DNA of 64,000 nucleotides, from positions 14,033 to 78,032 of the forward strand of contig CALGUV010000149.1 in the NCBI GenBank assembly GCA_937920245.1, given 5' to 3'. Made by a program: the position numbers and the translations under genes. This stretch comes from an uncultured Microbacteriaceae bacterium (GTDB lineage Bacteria > Actinomycetota > Actinomycetes > Actinomycetales > Microbacteriaceae). Numbering within the stretch: position 1 is the first letter of the stretch; each line of letters begins with the position of its first letter. The notes beneath the pieces were generated by a model. It saw nothing but the letters and a program-made list of their open reading frames with translations. It was not told the origin of the DNA and did not search any database. Shown one piece after another: positions 1,865-58,500 of this stretch.

Positions 1865-4440
1865 TCCTGATCGGGCTGAAACTTTAGATCTGTCACAGAT
1901 ACCTCTTTAGCCTCTTTGAAGTTCAGTTCGGCGATGTGACCAACAGCCGCTAGGTCCTTGGCCATACTTTGCATTGCAACTGGACCTGAAACAAGCGCAG
2001 TCGCGATCTCAGCCTTCATCGATAGCTTGTTATCCGACTTTGACTTTCTGATTTGAACTAGAGCGGCACTCGCCAAGATCATTAGCCCAGCATCCTCGCC
2101 TGATATCTCACCGGAAGTTGGCCAAGAGGACTTGTGCACTGTGCCGTCTTGCCACCAGCTCCAGACTTCTTCGGCTGCGAATGGAATGAATGGCGCAAAT
2201 AGTCGTACCAATACCCCAAGGGCCTGCCTCAGAGCAATAACTGCGCTTCCCTTTTCCTGTTCCGTGAAGTCGCCTTGGCCATAGGCCCGCTCTTTTACTA
2301 GCTCCAGGTAGTCGTCTGTGAATGTCCAGAAGAAGGACTCTGCTTTTTCCAGCGCTTTGGTGTGATCGTAACCCTCGAAGGCTTCTGTTGATCCGGCAAT
2401 TACTTCCTGGAGGCTAGCGAGCATAGATTTATCAATCGGCTCCGTAACCGCCGTGACGCCGGCTGGAAGCTCAAAGCTGAGGGCAAAGCGGGCTGCGTTT
2501 AGAAGTTTTATTGCAAGCCTTCTGCCGATTTTCATCTGGCCTTCGTCGAACGCGGCATCGGTTCCTAGGCGCGCACTGGCAGCCCAGTATCGAACCGCAT
2601 CTGAACCGTGTGTTTCGAGGATTTCGTTCGGAACAACTACGTTGCCCTTGGACTTTGACATCTTCTTGCGATCTGGATCCAGAATCCACCCGGAAATGGC
2701 TGCGTGCTTCCAAGGAGCCTGGCCGTGTTCGAGTTCAGAGCGAACCAAGGTTGAAAACAGCCATGTCCTAATAATGTCCTGACCCTGAGGTCTTAGGTCG
2801 TAGGGAAAGACCTTCTCGAACTTTTCCGGATTCGATAGCCATCCGCCCGCTAACTGGGGGGTCAGGGAGCTGGTTGCCCAGGTGTCCATGATGTCTAGTT
2901 CGCCAATAAAGCCATTTGCTTGCCCCCGCATTGTTTCTTCATAGCCGTCTGGGGTGTCGCTAGATGGGTCGACTGGGAGCTGGGCGTCGCTCGGAACAAT
3001 CGGGTTTTCATAGTCCGGATTGCCCTCGGCATCCAACGGATACCAAAGCGGTAACGGGACGCCGAAGAAGCGTTGACGAGAAATTAGCCAGTCACCGTTT
3101 AGTCCGTTGATCCAGTCCTCAAGCCGAACTCTCATGAAATCCGGGTGGAAGGCAACTTCCTTGCCAAGGCTTACTAGTCTTTCTCCAAGTTTTTTGTCGT
3201 TGCCACCGTTTTTTATGTACCACTGTCTGGTGGAAACTATTTCAAGAGGCTTTTCGCCCTTCTCGAAGAACTTCACAGGGTGGGTAATCGGCTTGGCGTC
3301 TCCGACCATGTCGCCGGAAGCCTGCAGGGACTTGACCAAAATTTCCTTGGCGCTAAAGACGGTTTTTCCAGCGAGCTCCGCGTATAGATCAGCACCCTTG
3401 CTGGCCGCTATCGCCTCGGGCGCATCTTGGAGTATTCGTCCATCAAAACCAATAATGGGTCGGGTCGGCAGCTTTAGCTCGCGCCACCAGATGACGTCAG
3501 TGACATCTCCGAAGGTGCAAATCATTGCAATGCCAGAGCCCTTGTCAATTTGTGCCAATCGATGGGCCAAAATCGGAACTTCTACTCCAAATAGCGGAGT
3601 TTTGGCGCTCTTGCCAAACAGGTGCGCGTATCTTTCGTCATCGGGGTGAGCAACCAGTGCAACACAGGCCGGAATTAGCTCTGGTCTAGTGGTTTCGATA
3701 AATATCTTGCCATCGGGACCGTCGAACCCGATGCGGTGATATGCCCCCGGCATCTCGCGGTCTTCGAGCTCGGCCTGAGCCACCGCGGTCCTAAAGCTTA
3801 CGTCCCAGAGTGTTGGTGCCATCTGCGAATACGCTTCGTTGCGAGCTAGGTTGTTAAGAAATGCACGCTGGGACACAAGTTGTGACTCTTTGGAGATAGT
3901 TCTGTAACTTTGTGCCCAGTCGACCGAGAGGCCTAGGTTTCTCCATAGGTTTTCAAAGGTCTTCTCATCTTCTTCGGTTAGCTGCTCACAAAGCGCGATG
4001 AAGTTTTGCCTTGAGATGGGAAGCTGGTCCTGCACTCTTGAGGATTTGTTATCTCCGCCTGTCTGGGGCGGTTGGAAATCTTTATCAAATGGCAGCGTTG
4101 GGTCGCATCTGACGCCGTAATAATTTTGAACTCTTCTTTCAGTTGGAAGACCATTGTCGTCCCAACCCATGGGGTAATAGACGGCCTTGCCGTTCATTCG
4201 CTTATAGCGAGCTACCACGTCGGTGTGGGTATAGCTGAAAACATGGCCAACGTGCAGAGATCCGGACGCTGTTGGCGGTGGGGTGTCGATCGAGTAGATG
4301 TCGCCCTTTGGAGCTCGAGAATCAAACTCATAAACTTTATTTGCCTCCCAGACAGGGGCCCATTTGGCCTCTAAGCCCTCTACGGAGGCTTTTTCTGGAA
4401 CGCTGGCGGGCCTTAGTGGCTCGGGAATGTAGTTATTCAA
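1861..4440 (-). CDS. valS: Valine--tRNA ligase
   Basis: [15 protein letters not shown] (HIGH-like), [18 protein letters not shown] and KMSKS. Start placed at TTG 4440, behind an AGAGG SD, rather than at 4533 (inference). Confidence 0.95.
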
Positions 4441-4513
4441 TAGGTATGACCTCTGTATATTCGTAGTCTCTAGATTAACATTGTTCTTGACCGTAACTTC
4501 TCCGAAAGCCGTG

Positions 4514-7500
4514 ATGTATCCAAAGCACCGCAATTCCTCTCAAGGGCCAATCGCCTCGCCTTCCTTTCCTGAACTTGAAAAGGAGGTGCTGGCCTACTGG
4601 GATAAAGACGGAACTTTTCAAGAATCAATTGACCAGCGAGCCGCAGCTGACGCCCCGGAGTTCGTCTTCTATGACGGACCTCCCTTTGCCAACGGACTTC
4701 CACACTACGGTCACCTTCTAACTGGCTATGCCAAGGACTTAGTGCCTCGCTACCAAACCATGAGGGGCAAGCGGGTTGAGCGCAGGTTCGGCTGGGACAC
4801 CCACGGGTTGCCCGCAGAAGTTGAGGCGGAGAGACTCTTAGGCATATCCGGCCGACCAGAGATCGAAAAATTTGGAGTAGCTAAGTTCAATGAATTTTGC
4901 AAGACCTCCGTACTGAAATACACCGAGGATTGGCGCAGCTACATCACTCGACAGGCCCGTTGGGTCGACTTTGATAATGACTACAAGACTCTGGACCAGA
5001 ACTACACCGAGAGCGTTATCTGGGCCTTCCAGCAGCTCCACAACAAAGGTTTGATCTACGAAGGCTTCAAGGTCCTGGCTTACTGCTGGCGATGCGAGAC
5101 TCCTCTTTCAAATCACGAACTGAAGATGGACGATGAGGTATACCGAGATAGACAGGATCAGTCTGTAACAGTTACTTTTCCGGTAACGAGCCAGGGTGAA
5201 CTTGCAGGCGTAAAAATACTTGCATGGACGACAACGCCGTGGACACTGCCGACAAACTTCGCACTCGCGGTTGGGCCGAATATCGAATATTCCTTGGTGC
5301 ATGCTAAAAATAGTGACTTGGGTGATGAAAAATTCTTGATCGCTTCGGCGCTTTTGCCTAACTATCTAAAAGAACTCGGCTTCGAAGACGTTGAGAGCGC
5401 TCAGGCCGCGGTGTCTAAGACCTACCTTGGTTCTGATCTAGGTGGCATTAAGTACGAGCCAATCTTTGACTTCTACAACGATCCCAGTAAGTTCAGCATC
5501 GAAAATGCGTGGCAAGTTCTAGTCGGCGACTACGTAACTGCCGAGGATGGCACCGGAATTGTCCACCAGGCCCCGGCTTACGGTGAAGATGACCAGATGC
5601 TCTGCAATGCTGCCGGCATTCCGACTTATGTGTCAGTCAATGAAAGAGGCGAATTCACCTCTCTGATAGGCACTTACGAGGGGCAGCATGTTTTTGAGGC
5701 TAATAAGCCGATTACTCAAGACTTGAAAGCGAATGGCAGGCTTATCAGGCAAGCGTCTTATGACCACAGCTACCCGCACTGCTACCGATGCAAAAATCCT
5801 CTGATTTACAAAGCGGTTTCATCGTGGTTTGTTGAGACCACAAAGGTCAAAGACCGAATGCTTGAACTAAACCAGGAGATCAACTGGGTTCCTGATCACA
5901 CCAAAAACGGTGGCTTCGGAAAATGGCTTGAGAACGTTCGAGATTGGGCAATTTCGAGAAATAGGTTCTGGGGAGCACCGATACCAGTTTGGAAATCAGA
6001 CGATCCCAATTACCCAAGAATCGATGTTTACGGCTCGCTTGACGAAATGGAGCGCGACTTTGGTGTTCGCCCCACCGATTTTCACAGGCCCGTTATCGAC
6101 GAGCTAACTAGACCAAACCCTGATGACCCATCTGGTAAGTCGACGATGAGAAGAGTGCCGGAAGTTTTGGATTGCTGGTTTGAATCTGGATCGATGCCAT
6201 TCGCTCAGGTTCACTATCCGTTTGAAAACCAGGATTGGTTTGACTCCCATTTTCCCGGCGACTACATAGTCGAGTACGTTGGACAAACCAAGGGCTGGTT
6301 TTACACACTTCACGTTTTGTCGACGGCGCTGTTTGATCGGCCAGCGTTTAAAAACGCGGTGAGCCACGGGATTGTCTTGGGCAATGACGGGCAGAAGATG
6401 TCCAAGTCGCTTCGAAACTATCCGGACGTCAACGAGGTATTTGATCGTGACGGCTCCGATGCAATGAGATGGTTTTTGATGTCAAGCCCGATTCTTCGTG
6501 GCGGAAACATTTCGGTGACCGAGCAGGGCATTCGAGAAGGTGTTCGTCAAGCGCTTTTGCCGCTGTGGAATAGCTATTACTTCTTCGCTCTCTACGCCAA
6601 CGCCTCCGGCTACACCGCGAGCCCGTCGATGGCATCAACTCAATTATTGGACAGATATATTCTGGCCAAAACCCGCGAGCTAATTGATTCGGTGACTCTC
6701 GACCTTGACACTTTTGACAGCTTCGCGGCGTCTGCCAAAGTTAGGGATTTCGCTGAAGTGCTTACCAATTGGTACATCCGGCGCTCTAGGGATCGATTCT
6801 GGGAAGGTGACAAGGACGCCTTCGACACTCTCTACACGGTTCTAGAAGCTGCTTTCAGAGTTATCGCTCCAATGCTGCCGCTGGTCGCCGAGGAGATGTG
6901 GCGTGGTTTGACCGACGGTCGCTCGGTTCATCTCGAGAGCTGGCCGGAGGCAGAGGAGTTCTTGCAGGATGCTCATCTAGTTCGGGATATGGATGCGATC
7001 CGCGAGGCGGCATCTTCTGGGCTTTCCTTGAGAAAGTCCTCTGGAATTCGTGTAAGGCAGCCACTTGCAAAAATTACGGTCGCTGTAGTTGGTTCTGATT
7101 CTCTTCGAGATTATGCCGAATTGTTGGCTGATGAGCTCAACGTGAAGGCCGTGGACATCGTGGAGGCCAACGCCGAAACCTCCTCAAGCTTTGGCCTAAA
7201 GCAATCGCTGGCCGTTAATGCCAGAGCCCTAGGACCTAGGGTTGGCAAGGATGTTCAGCGAATAATTGGACAAGCCAAGGCAGGTAACTGGGAAAAGTTG
7301 GCGGAGGGAATATTCGTTGATGGCACGTTGCTGATGGAGCCCGAGTACGAATTGACTCTTGTTGCGGACAATGAGTCCAGCGATTTTGCAGTTGGGGTGA
7401 CCAGTTCCGGATTCATTCTGCTTGATACTCGACTCACGCCGGAGCTTCAGTCAGAGGGTCTTGCCAGAGACACGATTCGACACATTCAGCAGGCCAGGAA

Positions 7501-13367: not shown

Positions 13368-14861
13368 ATGGTCACATTTGTTGATCAAGTAACCCTGCAC
13401 CTATCCGCGGGAAACGGCGGAGATGGGTGCACGAGCACAAAACGCGAGAAATTTAAGCCACTTGCTGGTCCTGACGGAGCCAATGGTGGCGATGGTGGAA
13501 CCATTTCGCTTATTTCAGACGTAAACACGACCACACTTCTTGACTACCACCACCGACCACACCGCACTGGGCTAAATGGAACAGCTGGAGCTGGCGATTA
13601 CCGAAACGGCGCTCACGGCGGCGACATTGTTCTAAAAGTTCCAGTAGGAACCGTAGTAAAAGACGCTCGTGGGAAATTGCTGGCTGATCTTGACTCAGTT
13701 GGCATGGAAATCGTCGTTGCCCAAGGCGGACAGGGAGGCCTCGGCAACGATGCGCTGTCTAACCAGAAAAGAATTGCTCCTGGTTTTCACCTCTTAGGCG
13801 TGCCCGGCTGGAAGGGTGAGGTAATCCTCGAGCTTAAGGTTGTCGCTGACATCGCTTTTGTGGGGTTCCCAAGTGCTGGCAAGAGTTCTCTGATTGCCTC
13901 GATGAGCTCAGCTCGTCCAAAAATTGCAGATTATCCATTCACCACTCTTCACCCAAACCTTGGCGTCGTTCAGGCCGGAGAGCAAAGGTACACCGTTGCT
14001 GACGTACCTGGTCTCATAGAGGGTGCAAGCCAAGGAAAAGGCCTAGGTCTTGAGTTTCTAAGGCACGTGGAAAGATGCAGCGCGCTGCTGCACGTCATTG
14101 ATTGTGCCACCATGGAGCCGGGTAGAGATCCTCTAACCGACCTGAAGGTGATTCTCGGCGAACTTCGTGACTACCAGGTGCCCGAGGGGCAGACGCCTCT
14201 GCACGAAAGACCTCAGCTAGTGGCCTTGAATAAAATAGATATTCCCGATGCTAAGGAATTGGCCGCTTTTGTCACAGAGGAACTGGAAGCCATGGGCTAC
14301 CCAGTCTTTGCTGTCTCAACTGCCACTCACGAGGGCTTGAAAGAACTGAACTTCGCTCTTAGCGCGGTTGTTCAGAAGGAACGCGAAGGCAAGGTTGTGG
14401 GAGCCCAGAAGAGATTCTCATTGATCCCAACCAAGTCCGAGGACTCTAGCTACATAGTGCGAAAAGAATCTATATCCGGTGAGGATGTTTTTCGAATCAT
14501 TGGCTCCAAGCCTGAGCGGTGGGTTGCACAGACTCATTTTGGAAACACCGAAGCGGTTGGATATCTTGCTGAACGTCTTCAAAAAATCGGCATAGAAGAC
14601 GAACTCGTGAGAAAAGGCGCGAAGCGCGGTTCCACCGTAATCATCGGTGAGGAAAATGGTGTCGTGTTTGACTGGGATCCGTTGATCGACTCTGTCGCAG
14701 AATTAGCCGATGGTATCGGTCTTGGGGAAGATGAAAAGCGAAGAACTAACGAACAACGACGTGGCGAATACTACGCGATGATGGATCAACGAGCCAAGGG
14801 CCGTGAAGAACGTGCTGCCGTTCGAGAGGCCAGCGTCTTCGTAGAAGAAGACCAAGAGTGA
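13368..14861 (+). CDS. obgE: GTPase ObgE/CgtA
   Basis: Gly-rich Obg fold, [16 protein letters not shown] and [10 protein letters not shown]. Confidence 0.97.
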
Positions 14862-52350: not shown

Positions 52351-53250
52351 TTGTTTTCACCCGAGATTGTAAGGGCATTTGCGATCGGCCTTGCTGTTAT
52401 CGGGGCGATTTTTCTCTCACTTGGCGCACAGTTTCAAAATGACGCAGTGACTAAACATCATGCGCCTAGCCGCCCGAGACCTGGATCCTTAAGCCTCAAG
52501 CAGATTGCTGATCTTCTCAGAAGACCCAGATGGCTGACTGGAACAAGTTTTTTGGTGCTGGCAATACTCTTCCAGCTATCCGCGCTTGCACTTGCTCCGC
52601 TGATCGTGGTGCAGCCGATCGGCGCAATTGCACTGATTATGACCTCTCTTTTAAACGCAAAGATTTACAGGCTCCGCCTAAACCTGAGCACGTTTCTTGC
52701 AATTGCCCTAACAACTCTGGGCGTTGGTGGTTTTGTTGCAGTGGCAGCCTCTAGTGCTGTGGCGGTTGAAATGAGCAACGAGAAGCTTTTGCAGGTAGTC
52801 GGAATATTATTTCTCTTACTGCTAATGTTCGGCGCATTATTCTGGCGGTCAAGGGGCAAGGTAGGTGCGCTGCAATACATTTTTGGGGCGGGCGTCCTCT
52901 ATGGCTTTGTTGCCTCGCTAGCCAAAGTCGTGATTCAGCGAGTCCTGCAGCAGGACTATGACCTTCTAACGCTGCTTGCTCTCATTTCACTGGTTGGAGC
53001 CACGGTTCTGGGTGGATGGTTCGTTCAGAACGCTTACGCGTCCGGCCCTCCGGATTTGGTCATCGCGGGGCTGACCGTTATCGATCCTGCTGTTGCAGTC
53101 ATGATCGGAATCGTAATTCTTGGTGAGGCCGAGGCGGCAAGTCTCGGAGAAGTGTTTGGCTACGCAGTGGCGGGTATCATTGCTATATCTGGAGTACTTG
53201 CCTTGAACAAATTTCACCCGCAGTTGACCGAGAAGGGTAACAGTGAGTAA
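52351..53250 (+). CDS. DMT-superfamily (NIPA-like) membrane transporter
   Basis: About nine TM segments; ALALAPLIVVQPIG and IGIVILGE patterns. Confidence 0.75.
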   Translation: MFSPEIVRAFAIGLAVIGAIFLSLGAQFQNDAVTKHHAPSRPRPGSLSLKQIADLLRRPRWLTGTSFLVLAILFQLSALALAPLIVVQPIGAIALIMTSLLNAKIYRLRLNLSTFLAIALTTLGVGGFVAVAASSAVAVEMSNEKLLQVVGILFLLLLMFGALFWRSRGKVGALQYIFGAGVLYGFVASLAKVVIQRVLQQDYDLLTLLALISLVGATVLGGWFVQNAYASGPPDLVIAGLTVIDPAVAVMIGIVILGEAEAASLGEVFGYAVAGIIAISGVLALNKFHPQLTEKGNSE

Positions 53251-54691
53251 ACCGATTAGGGTCCTCATAGCCTGCGACACTTTTGCCCCAGACATAAACG
53301 GGGCAGCCAGGTTTGCCGAACGTTTAGCCGGTGGTCTTGTTAGAAACGGTAACGAGGTGTCAATTATTGCTCCCGGTACAGACGGTTGGTCTGGAACAAG
53401 AGTGGAAGTTCACGACGGTGCCATGATGACCGTGCATAGACTTAAGAGTCACAAGATGCCGAACCACAAGAGTCATCGTTTGACTTCTCCCTTTGGGCTA
53501 TCCAGGGCGATCAAGAAAATAATTCTTCAGCAAAAGCCGGATGCACTGCACATACAGTCTCACCTGATGGTTGGAAGATTTGCGATGAGCGCAACCAGAG
53601 GAATGTCGATCCGAAGGATCGCAACCAACCACACGATGCCTGAGAACCTGCTCAAGTATGCGTTTCTGCCCAAATTTATGCACCCTCTTGCAATCAAGAT
53701 TCTCTGGGGGGATGCTGGCAGAGTCTTGCGGAAGATGGACGCTCTAACTACGCCCACGAGACGTGCGGCCGATCTTTTGGAGAATTCAGCGCACGTCAAG
53801 GGCGTTCTGGCCATCAGCTGCGGCATAGATGCAACGAAGTTTGCGAACCAGACTCGAACTCAGAACTTGGAGCCGGTGGCACTGTTCGTTGGTCGATTGG
53901 ATGACGAGAAAAGAATCAACATTTTGCTGATTGCCATTAGCAAATTAGATAAGTTTCCAAATCTAAAACTGCGACTGGTTGGTGATGGGGGTGAGCGCGA
54001 GCGTCTTGAGCGTCAGGCCAGTCAGCTTGGGATTTCGGATCGCGTCGAGTTCCTGGGGCACGTTACCGACCAAGAGCTTTCGGGGATTTATGAAAACTGC
54101 ACTGTTTTTGTAATGCCCTCAATTGCCGAGTTGCAGTCGATTGCGACCATGGAGGCAATGGCTTCTGGGCGACCAGTCATAGCCGCGGATGCCATGGCGC
54201 TTCCGCATTTGGTTCACGACGGTGACAACGGGTATTTATTCCCCCCGGACGACGCTGATGCCCTGAAAGAACGTTTAGAGCTTGTGCTTTCGGCGGACGA
54301 CAAAGAGCTTGCGAGACTCAGTGAAAACTCCCTGCATTTGATTCAGTCGCATGACATCGCAACAACCATAAGGATCTTTGAAGATCTCTATCGGGGCACG
54401 GGCGCAGATGTTCCGACCACAGCCGACAATCGTCCTGAGTATTTTTTGCCAATTGGCCGACTGTCTGCTTCGCTTAGAAAGCGCGTCGAGGAATTCAGGG
54501 TAGAGGCCCTAAGTCTTCGGCGGCGCGCAGAAGGTGCGTCGGAGAGCGCGCGAGGAAGATTCTCGGGTGCGGCGGATGAGGCCAGGGAGAGGCTTAGCGA
54601 GGTGCGCGAAGAGGTCAGGGAGCAGCTATCCGAGTTTCGAAGCGAGCTAGGCGATGCCGCAAAGAAATTTCGCCGTAAACGCGACGATTAG
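53243..54691 (+). CDS. GT4 family glycosyltransferase with a C-terminal helical extension
   Basis: DTFAPDINGAARF, FVGRLDDEKRI, FVMPSIAELQSIATMEAMASG and DGDNGYL. Confidence 0.88.
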   Translation: MSKPIRVLIACDTFAPDINGAARFAERLAGGLVRNGNEVSIIAPGTDGWSGTRVEVHDGAMMTVHRLKSHKMPNHKSHRLTSPFGLSRAIKKIILQQKPDALHIQSHLMVGRFAMSATRGMSIRRIATNHTMPENLLKYAFLPKFMHPLAIKILWGDAGRVLRKMDALTTPTRRAADLLENSAHVKGVLAISCGIDATKFANQTRTQNLEPVALFVGRLDDEKRINILLIAISKLDKFPNLKLRLVGDGGERERLERQASQLGISDRVEFLGHVTDQELSGIYENCTVFVMPSIAELQSIATMEAMASGRPVIAADAMALPHLVHDGDNGYLFPPDDADALKERLELVLSADDKELARLSENSLHLIQSHDIATTIRIFEDLYRGTGADVPTTADNRPEYFLPIGRLSASLRKRVEEFRVEALSLRRRAEGASESARGRFSGAADEARERLSEVREEVREQLSEFRSELGDAAKKFRRKRDD

Positions 54692-54845
54692 ATTGTTCTA
54701 GTCGATACATCGGATCCAGGGGGTGTCCTTTGTCTCGTAAACCCCGTGCAAGAGCTTTGGACGCCAAACCTGATGCAAAATTTCCTCACACCTGTTGCTT
54801 TAGACGAGGCGGCCTTGTCTTAGTTGGGTAGAATCTAAGAGGCTG

Positions 54846-54919
54846 GGGGCGTTAGCTCAGCTGGTTAGAGCAAACGACTCATAATCGTTCGGTCGCGGGT
54901 TCAAGTCCCGCACGCCCCA
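54846..54919 (+). tRNA. tRNA with CAT anticodon (probably Ile2/lysidine type; elongator Met not excluded; not initiator-like)
   Basis: Acceptor GGGGCGT/ACGCCCC; anticodon arm AACGA-CTCATAA-TCGTT; TAGAAT -10 candidate upstream. Confidence 0.9.
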
Positions 54920-54970
54920 CTTTCGGACACCTTTCCTTGCAACAGGACCAAGCATGGAAATATACACCGG

Positions 54971-55005
54971 CTCTCACTCAGTTACATGCCTCTCACCTAG
55001 TTACA
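54971..55005 (+). repeat. Tandem 16-bp direct repeat (CTCTCAC-NN-AGTTACA x2, 19-bp period)
   Basis: CTCTCACTCAGTTACA at 54971-54986 and CTCTCACCTAGTTACA at 54990-55005. Confidence 0.85.
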
Positions 55006-55032
55006 CTTGATCTTATAGATGGGAGTGTGTGA

Positions 55033-56088
55033 ATGTCGGCAGTGATCATTCAGGTCAAAACTTCCCTGCCTGAGCATGTTCATTCTCAATCTGAGGTAAC
55101 CGCCGCGTTGGTACCCAGGCTCGCACCGACTGATGGAACTAGAGCCGTCTTAGAGCGCCTTCACAGCAATTCCAAGATTGAACAGCGTCACTTCGTTTTA
55201 CCGATTTCGGAATACACGGATATTGATTCATTCACGAGGGCGAATACACTTTTTGCGCAACACGCACTCTCGCTGGTGGAGGACTGCACCAGAAGGGCGC
55301 TTGATGAAACCGGGCTAAATGCCGACGAAGTTGATCATCTTTTCTTCACCACGGTAACCGGTGTCGGCGCTCCTGCACTGGATGTCTTGCTTGCCGCTCG
55401 AATGGGTTTCCGGTCAGACCTCAAGAGGATCCCAAGCTTTGGTCTTGGCTGTGCTGGGGGTGCTGCGGGAATAGCCAGAGTCGCAGATTATCTATTGGGT
55501 AATCCAAAGGCGGTTGCGCTAGTTGTCTCTGTGGAGCTGTGTTCACTAACTATCCAATGGGAAGATCGATCCATGGCCAACTACGTTGGCACGGGAATCT
55601 TCGGTGACGGCGCAGCTGCCGTCGTGATGGTGGGTGGTCAGCACCCTAAGGCCATGAATGGGATTTCGGTCAAAGGCAGCAGAAGCACTTTGTACTCCGA
55701 TACTGAATCTCTGATTGGCTGGAAAGTTGGCGGCAGCGGGCTTTCTTTGATGCTTGAGGCCGGTGTACCAGAGATGATAATTGAAAACTTTGCAGCTGAG
55801 GTGGATGTCCTTCTAGGTCAACAAGGGCTGTCCCGCAACGACATAGACGTTTGGATAGCCCATCCGGGGGGTCCCAAAATTCTTGAGGCATTCGCTTCAT
55901 CACTTGATTTAGCCGACTCCGATTTGTCCGCCAGCTGGGATGTTATGGCCAGAGCCGGAAATATGTCCTCAGCCGCAGTTCTTCATGTCTTGAGCGATCT
56001 TTCTGAGCAGCCTTCGGCGACAATTGGTTTGCTGTTTGCGGTCGGTCCCGGAGTTTCCCTTGAGCTTGTCCTGTTGGAGTGGACATGA
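55033..56088 (+). CDS. Type III polyketide synthase
   Basis: Catalytic triad Cys (FGLGCAGG), His (IAHPGG) and Asn (GNMSS); also FGDGAAA. Confidence 0.95.
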   Translation: MSAVIIQVKTSLPEHVHSQSEVTAALVPRLAPTDGTRAVLERLHSNSKIEQRHFVLPISEYTDIDSFTRANTLFAQHALSLVEDCTRRALDETGLNADEVDHLFFTTVTGVGAPALDVLLAARMGFRSDLKRIPSFGLGCAGGAAGIARVADYLLGNPKAVALVVSVELCSLTIQWEDRSMANYVGTGIFGDGAAAVVMVGGQHPKAMNGISVKGSRSTLYSDTESLIGWKVGGSGLSLMLEAGVPEMIIENFAAEVDVLLGQQGLSRNDIDVWIAHPGGPKILEAFASSLDLADSDLSASWDVMARAGNMSSAAVLHVLSDLSEQPSATIGLLFAVGPGVSLELVLLEWT

Positions 56089-56621
56089 TCTTGACTATCG
56101 GCGTGATGCTATTCATCGGTCTTATTCTGGCGACGGGCGCAGAGCGGATTTACGAACTTGTTGTTTCGACTAGAAATGCAAAACTCGCTTTTATTTCCGG
56201 TGGCATCGAATATGGCCGCGGTCATTTGCCCTTCATGATTGCCCTGCATACCGCTTTACTAGCAGGGGCCATAATCGAAGTTGTTATTCTTGACCGCCAA
56301 TTTCTTGGTTCTCCGGGCTGGGTTTTCCTTGCCATTGCCATCGGATGTCAAGCGGCGAGGTATTGGTTTATTTGGGCACTTGGGTCCCAGTGGAATACCA
56401 GGGTGATCGTGATTCCAGGCGCGAAGCTTGTTAGAAAGGGTCCATATTCGCTGCCTTGGCTTCGTCACCCCAACTATTGGGTAGTAGCAATTGAGGGTTT
56501 CGCCTTGCCCATGGTTCACTCGGCTTGGATTACAGCAATCACGTTCACTGTTCTCAACGCCGTATTGCTCCTTGGATTCAGGATTCCTACCGAAAACAAG
56601 GCTTTGAAGGGCTTGAGATGA
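56085..56621 (+). CDS. Isoprenylcysteine carboxyl methyltransferase-family (SrsB/BpsB-like) methyltransferase
   Basis: GGIEYGRGH, LGSQWNTRV and RHPNY; ATGA overlap with the PKS stop. Confidence 0.9.
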   Translation: MILTIGVMLFIGLILATGAERIYELVVSTRNAKLAFISGGIEYGRGHLPFMIALHTALLAGAIIEVVILDRQFLGSPGWVFLAIAIGCQAARYWFIWALGSQWNTRVIVIPGAKLVRKGPYSLPWLRHPNYWVVAIEGFALPMVHSAWITAITFTVLNAVLLLGFRIPTENKALKGLR

Positions 56622-57661
56622 ACAACTACGACGTAATAGTCGTCGGGGGAGGCCCGGTAGGCATGGCAGCGGCCATTGAGGCTCGTTTGAGCGGCCTATC
56701 AGCTGTGGTTGTCGAACCGCGTAGTGGAGTAATTGACAAGGCTTGTGGTGAGGGCCTAATGCCTGGTGCAATTCCGCTGTTAGCTAGGTTGGGTGTATTT
56801 CCCAAGGGGCGTGATCTTGCTGGAGTCACATACAGAAGTGGTGGGCATGCAGTATCACACCGATTTTCGAGCGGCGTTGGAAAAGGCGTTAGGCGCACTG
56901 AGCTTCACGGAAGCCTTAGGTCGCGCTCGGAAGAACTTGGAGTGGTTTTTGTCGAGGCATCAGTGAGCTCCGTAACGGAAACCGAAAGTGGTTTGGTTGC
57001 ATCCTGCTCAAATGGTGGGAGCATCCAAGGTCGGTACCTGATAGCTGCGGATGGATTGCATTCCGGCATTGCCAAGGCTGCTGGATTGGTGAAGGACCTG
57101 TCTCCAAAGCGATCTAAACGCTTTGGAATAAGGCAGCATTTCCACGTTGCGCCCTGGTCCGAATTCATTGAAGTCTTTTACACCAAGACCGCTGAGGTCT
57201 ACATAACTCCGGTATCGGAGGACCAGGTGGGTGTGGCTGTCTTGGGGCCAAAGTCAACCGACTTTGATGAAACCATAGCTAGCATCCCAGAGCTTGCAGG
57301 AAGGCTAGCGGGTGCAGCACCGGCTTCGCAGCGAAGTGGAGCGGGCTCATTTCCTCAGCTAACCACTGGACGCACCAAGGGTCGCATCCTTTTGGTTGGC
57401 GACGCCTCCGGATATGTAGATGCAATCACTGGTGAGGGCTTGAGGTTGGGCTTTGCTCAAGCAAAGGTGGCGATTGAGTGTATTTTCAACGACAAGCCAG
57501 CAAGTTATGAAAGAGCTTGGCGACGAGTAAGCAGAGATTTTAGGGTTTTGACTGGGGGCCTAATTTCAGCGGCGAATTCTCCGATCAGAATGGCCATTGT
57601 CCCCCTAGCTAGCAGGCTTCCTTGGGTGTTTGGTTTGGTCGTCAATCGCTTGGCGCGCTAA
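56618..57661 (+). CDS. FAD-dependent oxidoreductase/monooxygenase
   Basis: VVGGGPVG, DKACGEGLMP, IAADG and GDASGYVDAITGEGL; ATGA overlap. Confidence 0.9.
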   Translation: MNNYDVIVVGGGPVGMAAAIEARLSGLSAVVVEPRSGVIDKACGEGLMPGAIPLLARLGVFPKGRDLAGVTYRSGGHAVSHRFSSGVGKGVRRTELHGSLRSRSEELGVVFVEASVSSVTETESGLVASCSNGGSIQGRYLIAADGLHSGIAKAAGLVKDLSPKRSKRFGIRQHFHVAPWSEFIEVFYTKTAEVYITPVSEDQVGVAVLGPKSTDFDETIASIPELAGRLAGAAPASQRSGAGSFPQLTTGRTKGRILLVGDASGYVDAITGEGLRLGFAQAKVAIECIFNDKPASYERAWRRVSRDFRVLTGGLISAANSPIRMAIVPLASRLPWVFGLVVNRLAR

Positions 57662-57663
57662 CT

Positions 57664-58500
57664 ATGTTTGCAAGCAAACTTAGTTTTCTTTATAAATCCA
57701 CCCACCCAATGCCCTCGTTCGCAGTGGCGCTCTTCGCCACGCTATTTGCGGTTGGCATCGGGCTCGAGACTCAAAGGGTTGCATTAGTGGGGTTTGCGGT
57801 TTTGTTCCAACAGTTCTCGGTGGGGTTATCAAACGATTGGCTAGACCACAAGCGTGATCGCGCTGCCGGGCGCACTGACAAGCCTGTGGCACGAGGCTCC
57901 GTAGGCGTTTCGCTAGTTAGAAACTTTTCTTTTGCTGCGGGTACTTTGGCGCTCTTGGTCTCGAGTGTTCTCGGGCGGGAGAGCCTTGGTTGGATGGTAT
58001 TTATGTTGGTCGCGGGTTGGACCTATAATCTTGGCCTTAAGGCAACCGCTTTCTCAGTACTGCCCTATGCAGTTGGTTTTGGTATTTTGCCAGCGTTTGC
58101 AACCTTGAGCCTTCAGGAAAGTCCGCTTCCACCCGCCTGGGTCGCGGTGGTCGCGGCCCTGCTAGGAGTGTCCGCGCACTTTGCTAATACTTTGCCGGAT
58201 CTCATGGAGGACAGGGCGACTGGGGTTCGAGCGCTGCCGCACATTGTCGGCCAAAAGATTTCGGCACTAGTCATTGCTGCCACGGCAATTCTTGCCTCAA
58301 GCATTGCTGTTTATCAAAGCGACGCCTTGGCAGTGTTCGTTGGACCAGTTGGACTTGTGGCAACTATCTTGTTGGCTGGCATTGCGTCTGTGTTGAGTCT
58401 CAGGCCAGCTCCACCGCGGGTAATCTTTCCGTTACTGGTCCTGGCATCCTTGGTCAATGCGATTTTACTGATGCTTGGTGTTGGCCCTATTGGGGCGTAG
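57664..58500 (+). CDS. UbiA family prenyltransferase
   Basis: Asp-rich motifs SNDWLDHKRD and NTLPDLMED in a multi-TM protein. Confidence 0.9.
   Translation: MFASKLSFLYKSTHPMPSFAVALFATLFAVGIGLETQRVALVGFAVLFQQFSVGLSNDWLDHKRDRAAGRTDKPVARGSVGVSLVRNFSFAAGTLALLVSSVLGRESLGWMVFMLVAGWTYNLGLKATAFSVLPYAVGFGILPAFATLSLQESPLPPAWVAVVAALLGVSAHFANTLPDLMEDRATGVRALPHIVGQKISALVIAATAILASSIAVYQSDALAVFVGPVGLVATILLAGIASVLSLRPAPPRVIFPLLVLASLVNAILLMLGVGPIGA

Follow-up and report, generated by a model that had tools for sequence, protein, structure and literature searches.

The DNA analysed here, hereafter the window, is a stretch of 64,000 nucleotides (positions 14,033 to 78,032 of contig CALGUV010000149.1, GenBank assembly GCA_937920245.1) from an uncultured Microbacteriaceae bacterium, a marine actinobacterium (Aquiluna) with a small genome, the source genome being a metagenome-assembled genome (MAG) of 1.58 Mb in 172 contigs that is 98% complete. 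Reading of the open reading frames (ORFs) of the window shows four intact ORFs, all on the + strand and packed within positions 55033-58500, which, judging from the gene families and genomic contexts described below, probably form a single operon for a membrane phenolic lipid. The first of them encodes a type III polyketide synthase (PKS), and the four genes are as follows.

55033..56088, + strand: type III PKS, 351 amino acids, SrsA/PkqA/ArsMB-like, predicted long-chain alkylresorcinol synthase
56085..56621, + strand: ICMT-family membrane methyltransferase, 178 amino acids, SrsB-like, predicted to O-methylate the resorcinol
56618..57661, + strand: FAD_binding_3 flavoprotein, 347 amino acids, SrsC-like, predicted ring hydroxylase
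57664..58500, + strand: UbiA-family membrane prenyltransferase, 278 amino acids, of a subfamily adjoining type III PKS clusters

The PKS and methyltransferase genes meet in an ATGA overlap at 56085-56088 (GACATGATC), the methyltransferase and flavoprotein genes share a second ATGA overlap at 56618-56621 (GAGATGAAC), and the flavoprotein and UbiA genes are separated by a 2-bp gap at 57662-57663 (TAA-ct-ATG). An earlier note on this DNA had listed the four intact genes, the two overlaps, the short gap, and a set of catalytic motifs, all of which can be read from the sequence. Downstream of UbiA, a convergent ABC transporter operon begins.

The Pfam scores of all four proteins lie well above the gathering scores. 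The PKS matches Chal_sti_synt_N/C (E values of 2e-22 and 3e-20) and contains the catalytic triad Cys140, His277, and Asn310; its closest solved relative, according to a sequence search of the PDB, is PKS11 of M. tuberculosis (292 bits, E 6e-86, ~50% identity), and it is 58-60% identical to the type III PKSs of 349 amino acids found in Pontimonas. The methyltransferase is assigned to ICMT (PF04140; E 6e-23, 81.5 bits vs. a cut-off of 24) and features RHPNY at residues 127-131 along with hydrophobic segments, while a PDB sequence search with this protein gave no match. Its gene lies directly 3' of the PKS gene in every orthologous locus examined. The flavoprotein belongs to FAD_binding_3 (PF01494, E 2e-16), carries the motifs GGGPVG (10-15), DG (144-145), and GD (261-262), and has orthologues in third position in three-gene cassettes; DKACGEGLMP, DGLHS, and GDAxGYVDAxTGEG are invariant across 14 orthologues, namely, that of the window and 13 others. 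Microcella, Pontimonas, and many further genomes keep the order PKS-ICMT-FAD, which in Microcella flavibacter occurs without an adjoining UbiA gene.

A characterised relative of the first three genes is found in Pontimonas. Its PKS ArsMB, of 349 amino acids, yields alkylresorcinols of C13 and C15 when produced in E. coli and is part of a srsABC-like cassette with identities of 48% to SrsA (BAG17301.1), 52% to SrsB (BAG17300.1), and 43% to SrsC, as reported in a paper of November 2026 (PMC13730376). On the basis of family assignment, gene order, and the transitive link via this Pontimonas cassette, SrsA to SrsC being compared by description only, we classify the first three genes of the window as a srsABC/pkqABC-type cassette. 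The earlier statement that no such pathway had been described in this lineage needs to be narrowed, as PMC13730376 characterises ArsMB and mentions Aquiluna homologues; of the UbiA gene, that paper makes no mention. Our literature search found no paper describing a srs-type cassette with a UbiA gene.

The product of the fourth gene matches PF01040 (E 2e-23, 83.4 bits vs. a cut-off of 34.2) and shows multiple hydrophobic segments and two Asp-rich motifs, NDWLDHKRD (57-65) and DLMED (179-183). It scores 22.3 bits with the MenA model NF004749, far under the cut-off of 277, and by its sequence is deemed neither MenA nor a canonical quinone prenyltransferase; a PDB sequence search with it gave no match. 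A cell-wall role was considered and rejected: no curated family of the decaprenyl-phosphate phosphoribosyltransferase type matched, and the DprE1-like FAD_binding_4/ALO gene that lies 2 kb from UbiA in one genome (L018) is not a conserved neighbour.

Species-representative genomes were scanned with a UbiA profile derived from 13 aligned relatives, which yielded at least 585 loci; the best 80 were kept, and the window proteins together with the proteins of a second cluster type were mapped onto them. Among these best 80 loci, the same UbiA subfamily adjoins type III PKS clusters of three kinds. In context A, the partner is the srs-type trio, collinear with UbiA in Aquiluna, Pontimonas salivibrio (L023), a Nanopelagicales-labelled MAG, an Actinomycetota MAG, and Nocardioides, and divergent from it in Pedococcus, Krasilnikoviella, a Mycobacteriales MAG, and others; across 12 context-A loci of different actinobacterial families, only the PKS, ICMT, flavoprotein, and UbiA genes are common to all. 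In context B, UbiA adjoins a distinct type III PKS (~33% identical to that of the window), a class I S-adenosylmethionine (SAM) methyltransferase, and a larger FAD_binding_3 monooxygenase, with Leifsonia, Agrococcus, Sanguibacter, Frondihabitans, Labedella, and Microbacterium as hosts (L022 7132-11234 and L020 6943-10870; also L061, L068, L070, L071, L081, L085, and L102). In context C, represented by Micromonospora, the type III PKS and UbiA are accompanied by a class I methyltransferase and an acyl-CoA-dehydrogenase-like protein. The four-gene module is hence not special to the Aquiluna lineage, since Pontimonas salivibrio, Nocardioides, Pedococcus, and Krasilnikoviella have it too. Two loci came from MAGs labelled as other phyla, Candidatus Melainabacteria (L084) and Acidobacteria (L072); their UbiA genes nest among actinobacterial sequences in the tree, the L084 contig additionally carries PKS and ICMT genes, and both are probably mis-binned contigs.

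Linkage and co-occurrence were also counted in two groups. In the Mycobacteriales family of the L105 genome, where 59 published genomes were counted and the unpublished G200 and G209 left out, UbiA is present in 44 genomes, and its distance to a srs-type PKS is <1 kb in 33 of these 44, 1-3 kb in 4, and 6-12 kb in 5. The adjoining srs/pkq-type PKS and UbiA genes of this family are mostly divergent. Among 151 Microbacteriaceae genomes, which as relatives are not independent, so that the counts are descriptive and not a test, UbiA occurs in 59 of the 60 genomes with a srs-type PKS (adjacent in just 4), in 21 of the 45 with only a distant type III PKS (16 adjacent), and in 4 of the 46 without any PKS. 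Together, the three cluster contexts, the adjacency in Mycobacteriales, and the co-occurrence in Microbacteriaceae speak for a functional connection of this UbiA subfamily with the products of type III PKSs.

The pathway that we propose has four steps. The type III PKS would prime with a long-chain fatty acyl thioester, add malonyl units, and cyclise the chain to a 5-alkylresorcinol, one hydroxyl of which would be O-methylated by the ICMT-type membrane enzyme, as by SrsB. The flavoprotein would then hydroxylate the ring in the manner of SrsC/PkqC, giving a 6-alkyl-2-methoxy-hydroquinone that could be oxidised to the benzoquinone. Finally UbiA, which is predicted to prenylate the phenolic ring or one of its hydroxyls, would move a prenyl group to it from a prenyl diphosphate, as AgqD does in Actinoplanes. 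The expected product, which we regard as likely, is a prenylated alkyl-methoxy-(hydro)quinone membrane lipid. A candidate lipid of this type had been put forward in the earlier note, whose statements on srs, agq, and the mycobacterial polyketide quinones agree with PMC9927152, PMC10896814, and PMC7692728; as deduced from the genes, it is the best-supported explanation of the locus and has a good chance of being right. Its role would be that of an accessory lipid, whether protective, antioxidant, or an auxiliary redox carrier, and not that of the main respiratory quinone. The window's genome encodes MenA (247.6 bits), MenB, and MenD, all above curated cut-offs, and on contig C121 their genes form a cluster with one for a polyprenyl diphosphate synthase; therefore, the product of the operon is not the organism's only quinone. 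A second polyprenyl diphosphate synthase is encoded elsewhere in the genome, and with these two synthases prenyl donors are plausible.

The nearest copies of the operon are found in marine or polar Aquiluna MAGs (L028 and L029), with identities of 96% for the PKS, 92% for the methyltransferase, 94% for the flavoprotein, and 84-85% for UbiA, and Candidatus Aquiluna sp. UB-MaderosW2red has the same four genes, its PKS being 68% identical to that of the window. The ratio of nonsynonymous to synonymous divergence (dN/dS), calculated against two Aquiluna MAGs, is 0.05-0.20 for each of the four genes, all of which are under purifying selection. Since the arrangement is kept at 84-96% protein identity in two other Aquiluna MAGs with such ratios for every gene, it is not a chance pattern of ORFs. 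For UbiA, both dS and dN are higher than for the other operon genes, and their ratio is similar. Along 53243-58500, synonymous divergence varies several-fold and in a pattern that differs between L028 and L029: the dS of the upstream GT4 glycosyltransferase gene is 0.15 vs. L028 and 1.16 vs. L029, and that of UbiA is 0.75-0.81 vs. both. This unevenness suggests recombination among Aquiluna strains.

As for transcription, marine metatranscriptome contigs from two studies cover the operon, and each of its three gene junctions is bridged (55573-57210, 56355-56651, and 57591-57975). The RNA-library contigs of two runs end near 57210 and do not include UbiA; their strains are ~3% divergent, UbiA is the most divergent gene, and the gap, which probably reflects the 95% likeness threshold, is not taken as silence. 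Contig depths were not used for ranking the genes.

Two features lie immediately upstream of the operon.

54846..54920, + strand: tRNA-Met (CAT), found with ARAGORN, 112 bp upstream of the PKS gene and at the upstream edge of a variable site
54971..55005, + strand: tandem direct repeat CTCTCACyyAGTTACA x2 with a 19-bp period, 27 bp upstream of the PKS start codon

The repeat sits just upstream of the Shine-Dalgarno sequence of the PKS gene, has no adjoining regulator gene beside it, and is near-identical in L028 and degenerate in L029; upstream of the PKS gene of UB-MaderosW2red (L013), it was not recognisable. It is a possible operator or promoter element. Simple promoter and terminator scans gave numbers close to those of shuffled sequence (3 vs. 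2.6 and 8 vs. 5.4) and were left unused. In the Aquiluna MAG ANT-62, an extra stretch of ~3 kb (L029 2264-5190), holding two ORFs (2389-4158 and 4161-5123), lies between the GT4 glycosyltransferase gene and tRNA-Met and has no counterpart in the window and L028.

Several observations weigh against a prenylated alkyl-methoxy-(hydro)quinone made by all four gene products. The reported products of srs and pkq are unprenylated alkylquinones (PMC9927152). The top NCBIfam match of the flavoprotein is TIGR02032, a geranylgeranyl-reductase family, at 104.6 bits, which is below its cut-off of 158.8. A marine RNA-library contig of 735 nt is identical to window positions 54580-55314, from the 3' end of the GT4 gene through tRNA-Met and the intergenic repeat into the start of the PKS gene, and would be either read-through transcription or DNA carry-over, the two being indistinguishable. 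Moreover, the closest non-Aquiluna UbiA orthologues (52-60% identity) belong to five genomes of 1.1-1.3 Mb, namely, three Rhodoluna MAGs, the complete 1.29-Mb chromosome of MiE-23b, and one Pontimonas MAG (L030-L033 and L103), in which no type III PKS, ICMT, or SrsC-like flavoprotein was found. As the orphan UbiA gene is retained without a PKS, it has, or has gained, a PKS-independent role in those lineages, and its existence indicates that this UbiA can have such a role.

The rival explanation that best survives builds on these orphan genes. It holds that the trio alone makes an unprenylated alkyl-methoxy-benzoquinone of the PkQ/srs type, and that UbiA, a mere neighbour of the trio, serves another acceptor as an independent housekeeping prenyltransferase; the fact that UbiA is unlinked to the trio in most Microbacteriaceae speaks for it, as does the unprenylated state of the published products. 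In the three Rhodoluna MAGs and MiE-23b, a NIPA-like gene, the GT4 glycosyltransferase gene, tRNA-Met, UbiA, and later a thymidine kinase gene reproduce the synteny of the window, with tRNA-Met directly preceding UbiA alone in MiE-23b (L030), and the catalytic motifs are all intact in the four genomes that were aligned, despite mutual identities of only 48-62% (the fifth orphan, L103, was recovered as two fragments and left out of the alignment). However, in the UbiA tree the orphans and Aquiluna form one clade, with a Shimodaira-Hasegawa-like approximate likelihood-ratio test (SH-aLRT) value of 99, whose sister clade (92) consists solely of collinear four-gene operons. The PKS-less genomes thus nest among four-gene operons, which fits a secondary loss of the trio, and loss of the trio with UbiA retained would be the simplest account of the orphan genes. 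The adjacency of UbiA to three PKS cluster types in distant families, its presence in all but one of the Microbacteriaceae genomes with a srs-type PKS, and the gap of just 2 bp behind the flavoprotein gene in the window also argue against a mere neighbour, and we regard this explanation as unlikely.

A second rival concerns the flavoprotein, which might act like a geranylgeranyl reductase, saturating the prenyl chain that UbiA attaches and carrying out no ring hydroxylation, so that a (dihydro)prenylated alkylresorcinol methyl ether would result and not a quinone. The TIGR02032 match extends over the full length of the protein, the next curated families are MenJ (menaquinone reductase) and QhpG, and the archaeal reductase 3oz2 is among the PDB matches, which also include PyrE3, halogenases, and several flavin monooxygenases. 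An invariant Cys lies within DKACGEGLMP, which we take to resemble a reductase active-site motif, and a dihydrogeranyl group is present in the agq products. Yet the TIGR02032 score stays under the family cut-off, the monooxygenases among the PDB matches point the other way, the orthologous flavoprotein also occurs in three-gene cassettes without an adjoining UbiA, and for its Pontimonas orthologue PMC13730376 reports 43% identity to SrsC, an enzyme described as a hydroxylase dependent on FAD. This rival is accordingly rated as quite improbable.

Least probable of all is a bona fide respiratory carrier that replaces menaquinone under some conditions, as has been proposed for polyketide quinones of mycobacteria and Streptomyces: the trio has its homologues in pkq-type cassettes and the nearest solved relative of its PKS, PKS11, is implicated in PkQ cores (PMC12329547, PMC9927152), but the genome has MenA, MenB, and MenD with an adjoining polyprenyl synthase, neither a complete genome of the same genus nor Rhodoluna was found to carry the operon, the RNA libraries are labelled marine and aquatic metatranscriptomes, so that under an assumed oxic planktonic habitat hypoxic dormancy would be unexpected, and AgqD-like O-prenylation by UbiA would block redox cycling. 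The non-canonical respiratory quinone considered in the earlier note is accordingly reduced to, at most, an auxiliary carrier.

In two further complete small genomes, G011 of the same genus and G009, tRNA-Met precedes other genes and none of the four was found at the site after it; a search of the complete G011 genome likewise found none of them. Owing to their lack at this site in the two complete genomes and to the presence of UbiA alone in Rhodoluna-type genomes, the operon is accessory within the Luna group and sits in a variable site beside tRNA-Met. The argument that a full pathway kept in a minimal region suggests an important lipid is consequently weakened.

Beta-lactam tolerance, protection from oxidants and endolysins, and hypoxic respiration have all been associated with phenolic lipids of srs/pkq-type cassettes. 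If the coupled UbiA prenylates these lipids, the pathway as described, with three genes, would be incomplete in many actinobacteria, among them most of the sampled genomes of one Mycobacteriales family, and a new group of polyketide-isoprenoid lipids would await isolation. A bolder and doubtful proposal is that UbiA is an overlooked, conserved fourth member of srs/pkq-type cassettes across Actinomycetota, the sampled Mycobacteriales family included, that the end product is a hybrid polyketide-isoprenoid (hydro)quinone, and that the Rhodoluna-type enzyme has been kept for a second, PKS-independent acceptor; were this true, these bacteria would contain a class of membrane redox or antioxidant lipids not yet isolated from them. 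The most interesting loose ends are the orphan UbiA that persists without the trio and, in the Mycobacteriales family, the UbiA gene that stands beside pkq-type cassettes almost universally. The Rhodoluna genomes with UbiA alone offer a natural experiment on other roles of this prenyltransferase, and the window operon, a compact four-gene version covered by RNA libraries, is suited to heterologous reconstitution, its practical value being modest.

Compared with known systems, the window operon shares with srsABC of Streptomyces griseus, pkqABC of Mycolicibacterium smegmatis and Streptomyces sp. MNU77, and the ArsMB cassette the same three families in the same order and with translational coupling. 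The logic of srs and pkq, the latter described as a three-gene machinery, leads from a resorcinol through O-methylation and hydroxylation to an alkylquinone (PMC9927152). Unlike these three-gene cassettes, which yield unprenylated alkylresorcinols or alkylquinones, the window adds a coupled UbiA gene, SrsA-C and PkqA-C being set beside it by description. A prenylating counterpart is agqABCD of Actinoplanes missouriensis, which leads to 6-alkyl-4-O-dihydrogeranyl-2-methoxyhydroquinones according to Awakawa et al. (2011) as cited in PMC3569393 and PMC10896814. A layout of UbiA, methyltransferase, acyl-CoA-dehydrogenase-like protein, and PKS is tabulated for the los cluster of Micromonospora (PMC7587189) and is called agq-like in PMC8698034 and PMC7692728. 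With agqABCD and these agq-like/los clusters, the window has in common the combination of a type III PKS, a methyltransferase, an oxygenase, and a UbiA enzyme. Its UbiA appears to belong to the same subfamily as that of Micromonospora, with 46-47% identity over the N-terminal 196 residues and 36% overall, AgqD itself not being part of the comparison. The remaining enzymes differ, since the Micromonospora locus (L093) encodes a Methyltransf_11 class I SAM methyltransferase and an Acyl-CoA_dh oxygenase, whereas the window encodes ICMT and FAD_binding_3 proteins; the two PKSs are ~31-34% identical, and gene order and orientation differ as well. The operon is therefore an uncharacterised variant of a known pathway, the enzyme logic of which is known from Streptomyces, mycobacteria, and Actinoplanes (agq since 2011), and by analogy with these systems it would work like srsABC/pkqABC extended by an AgqD-like step.

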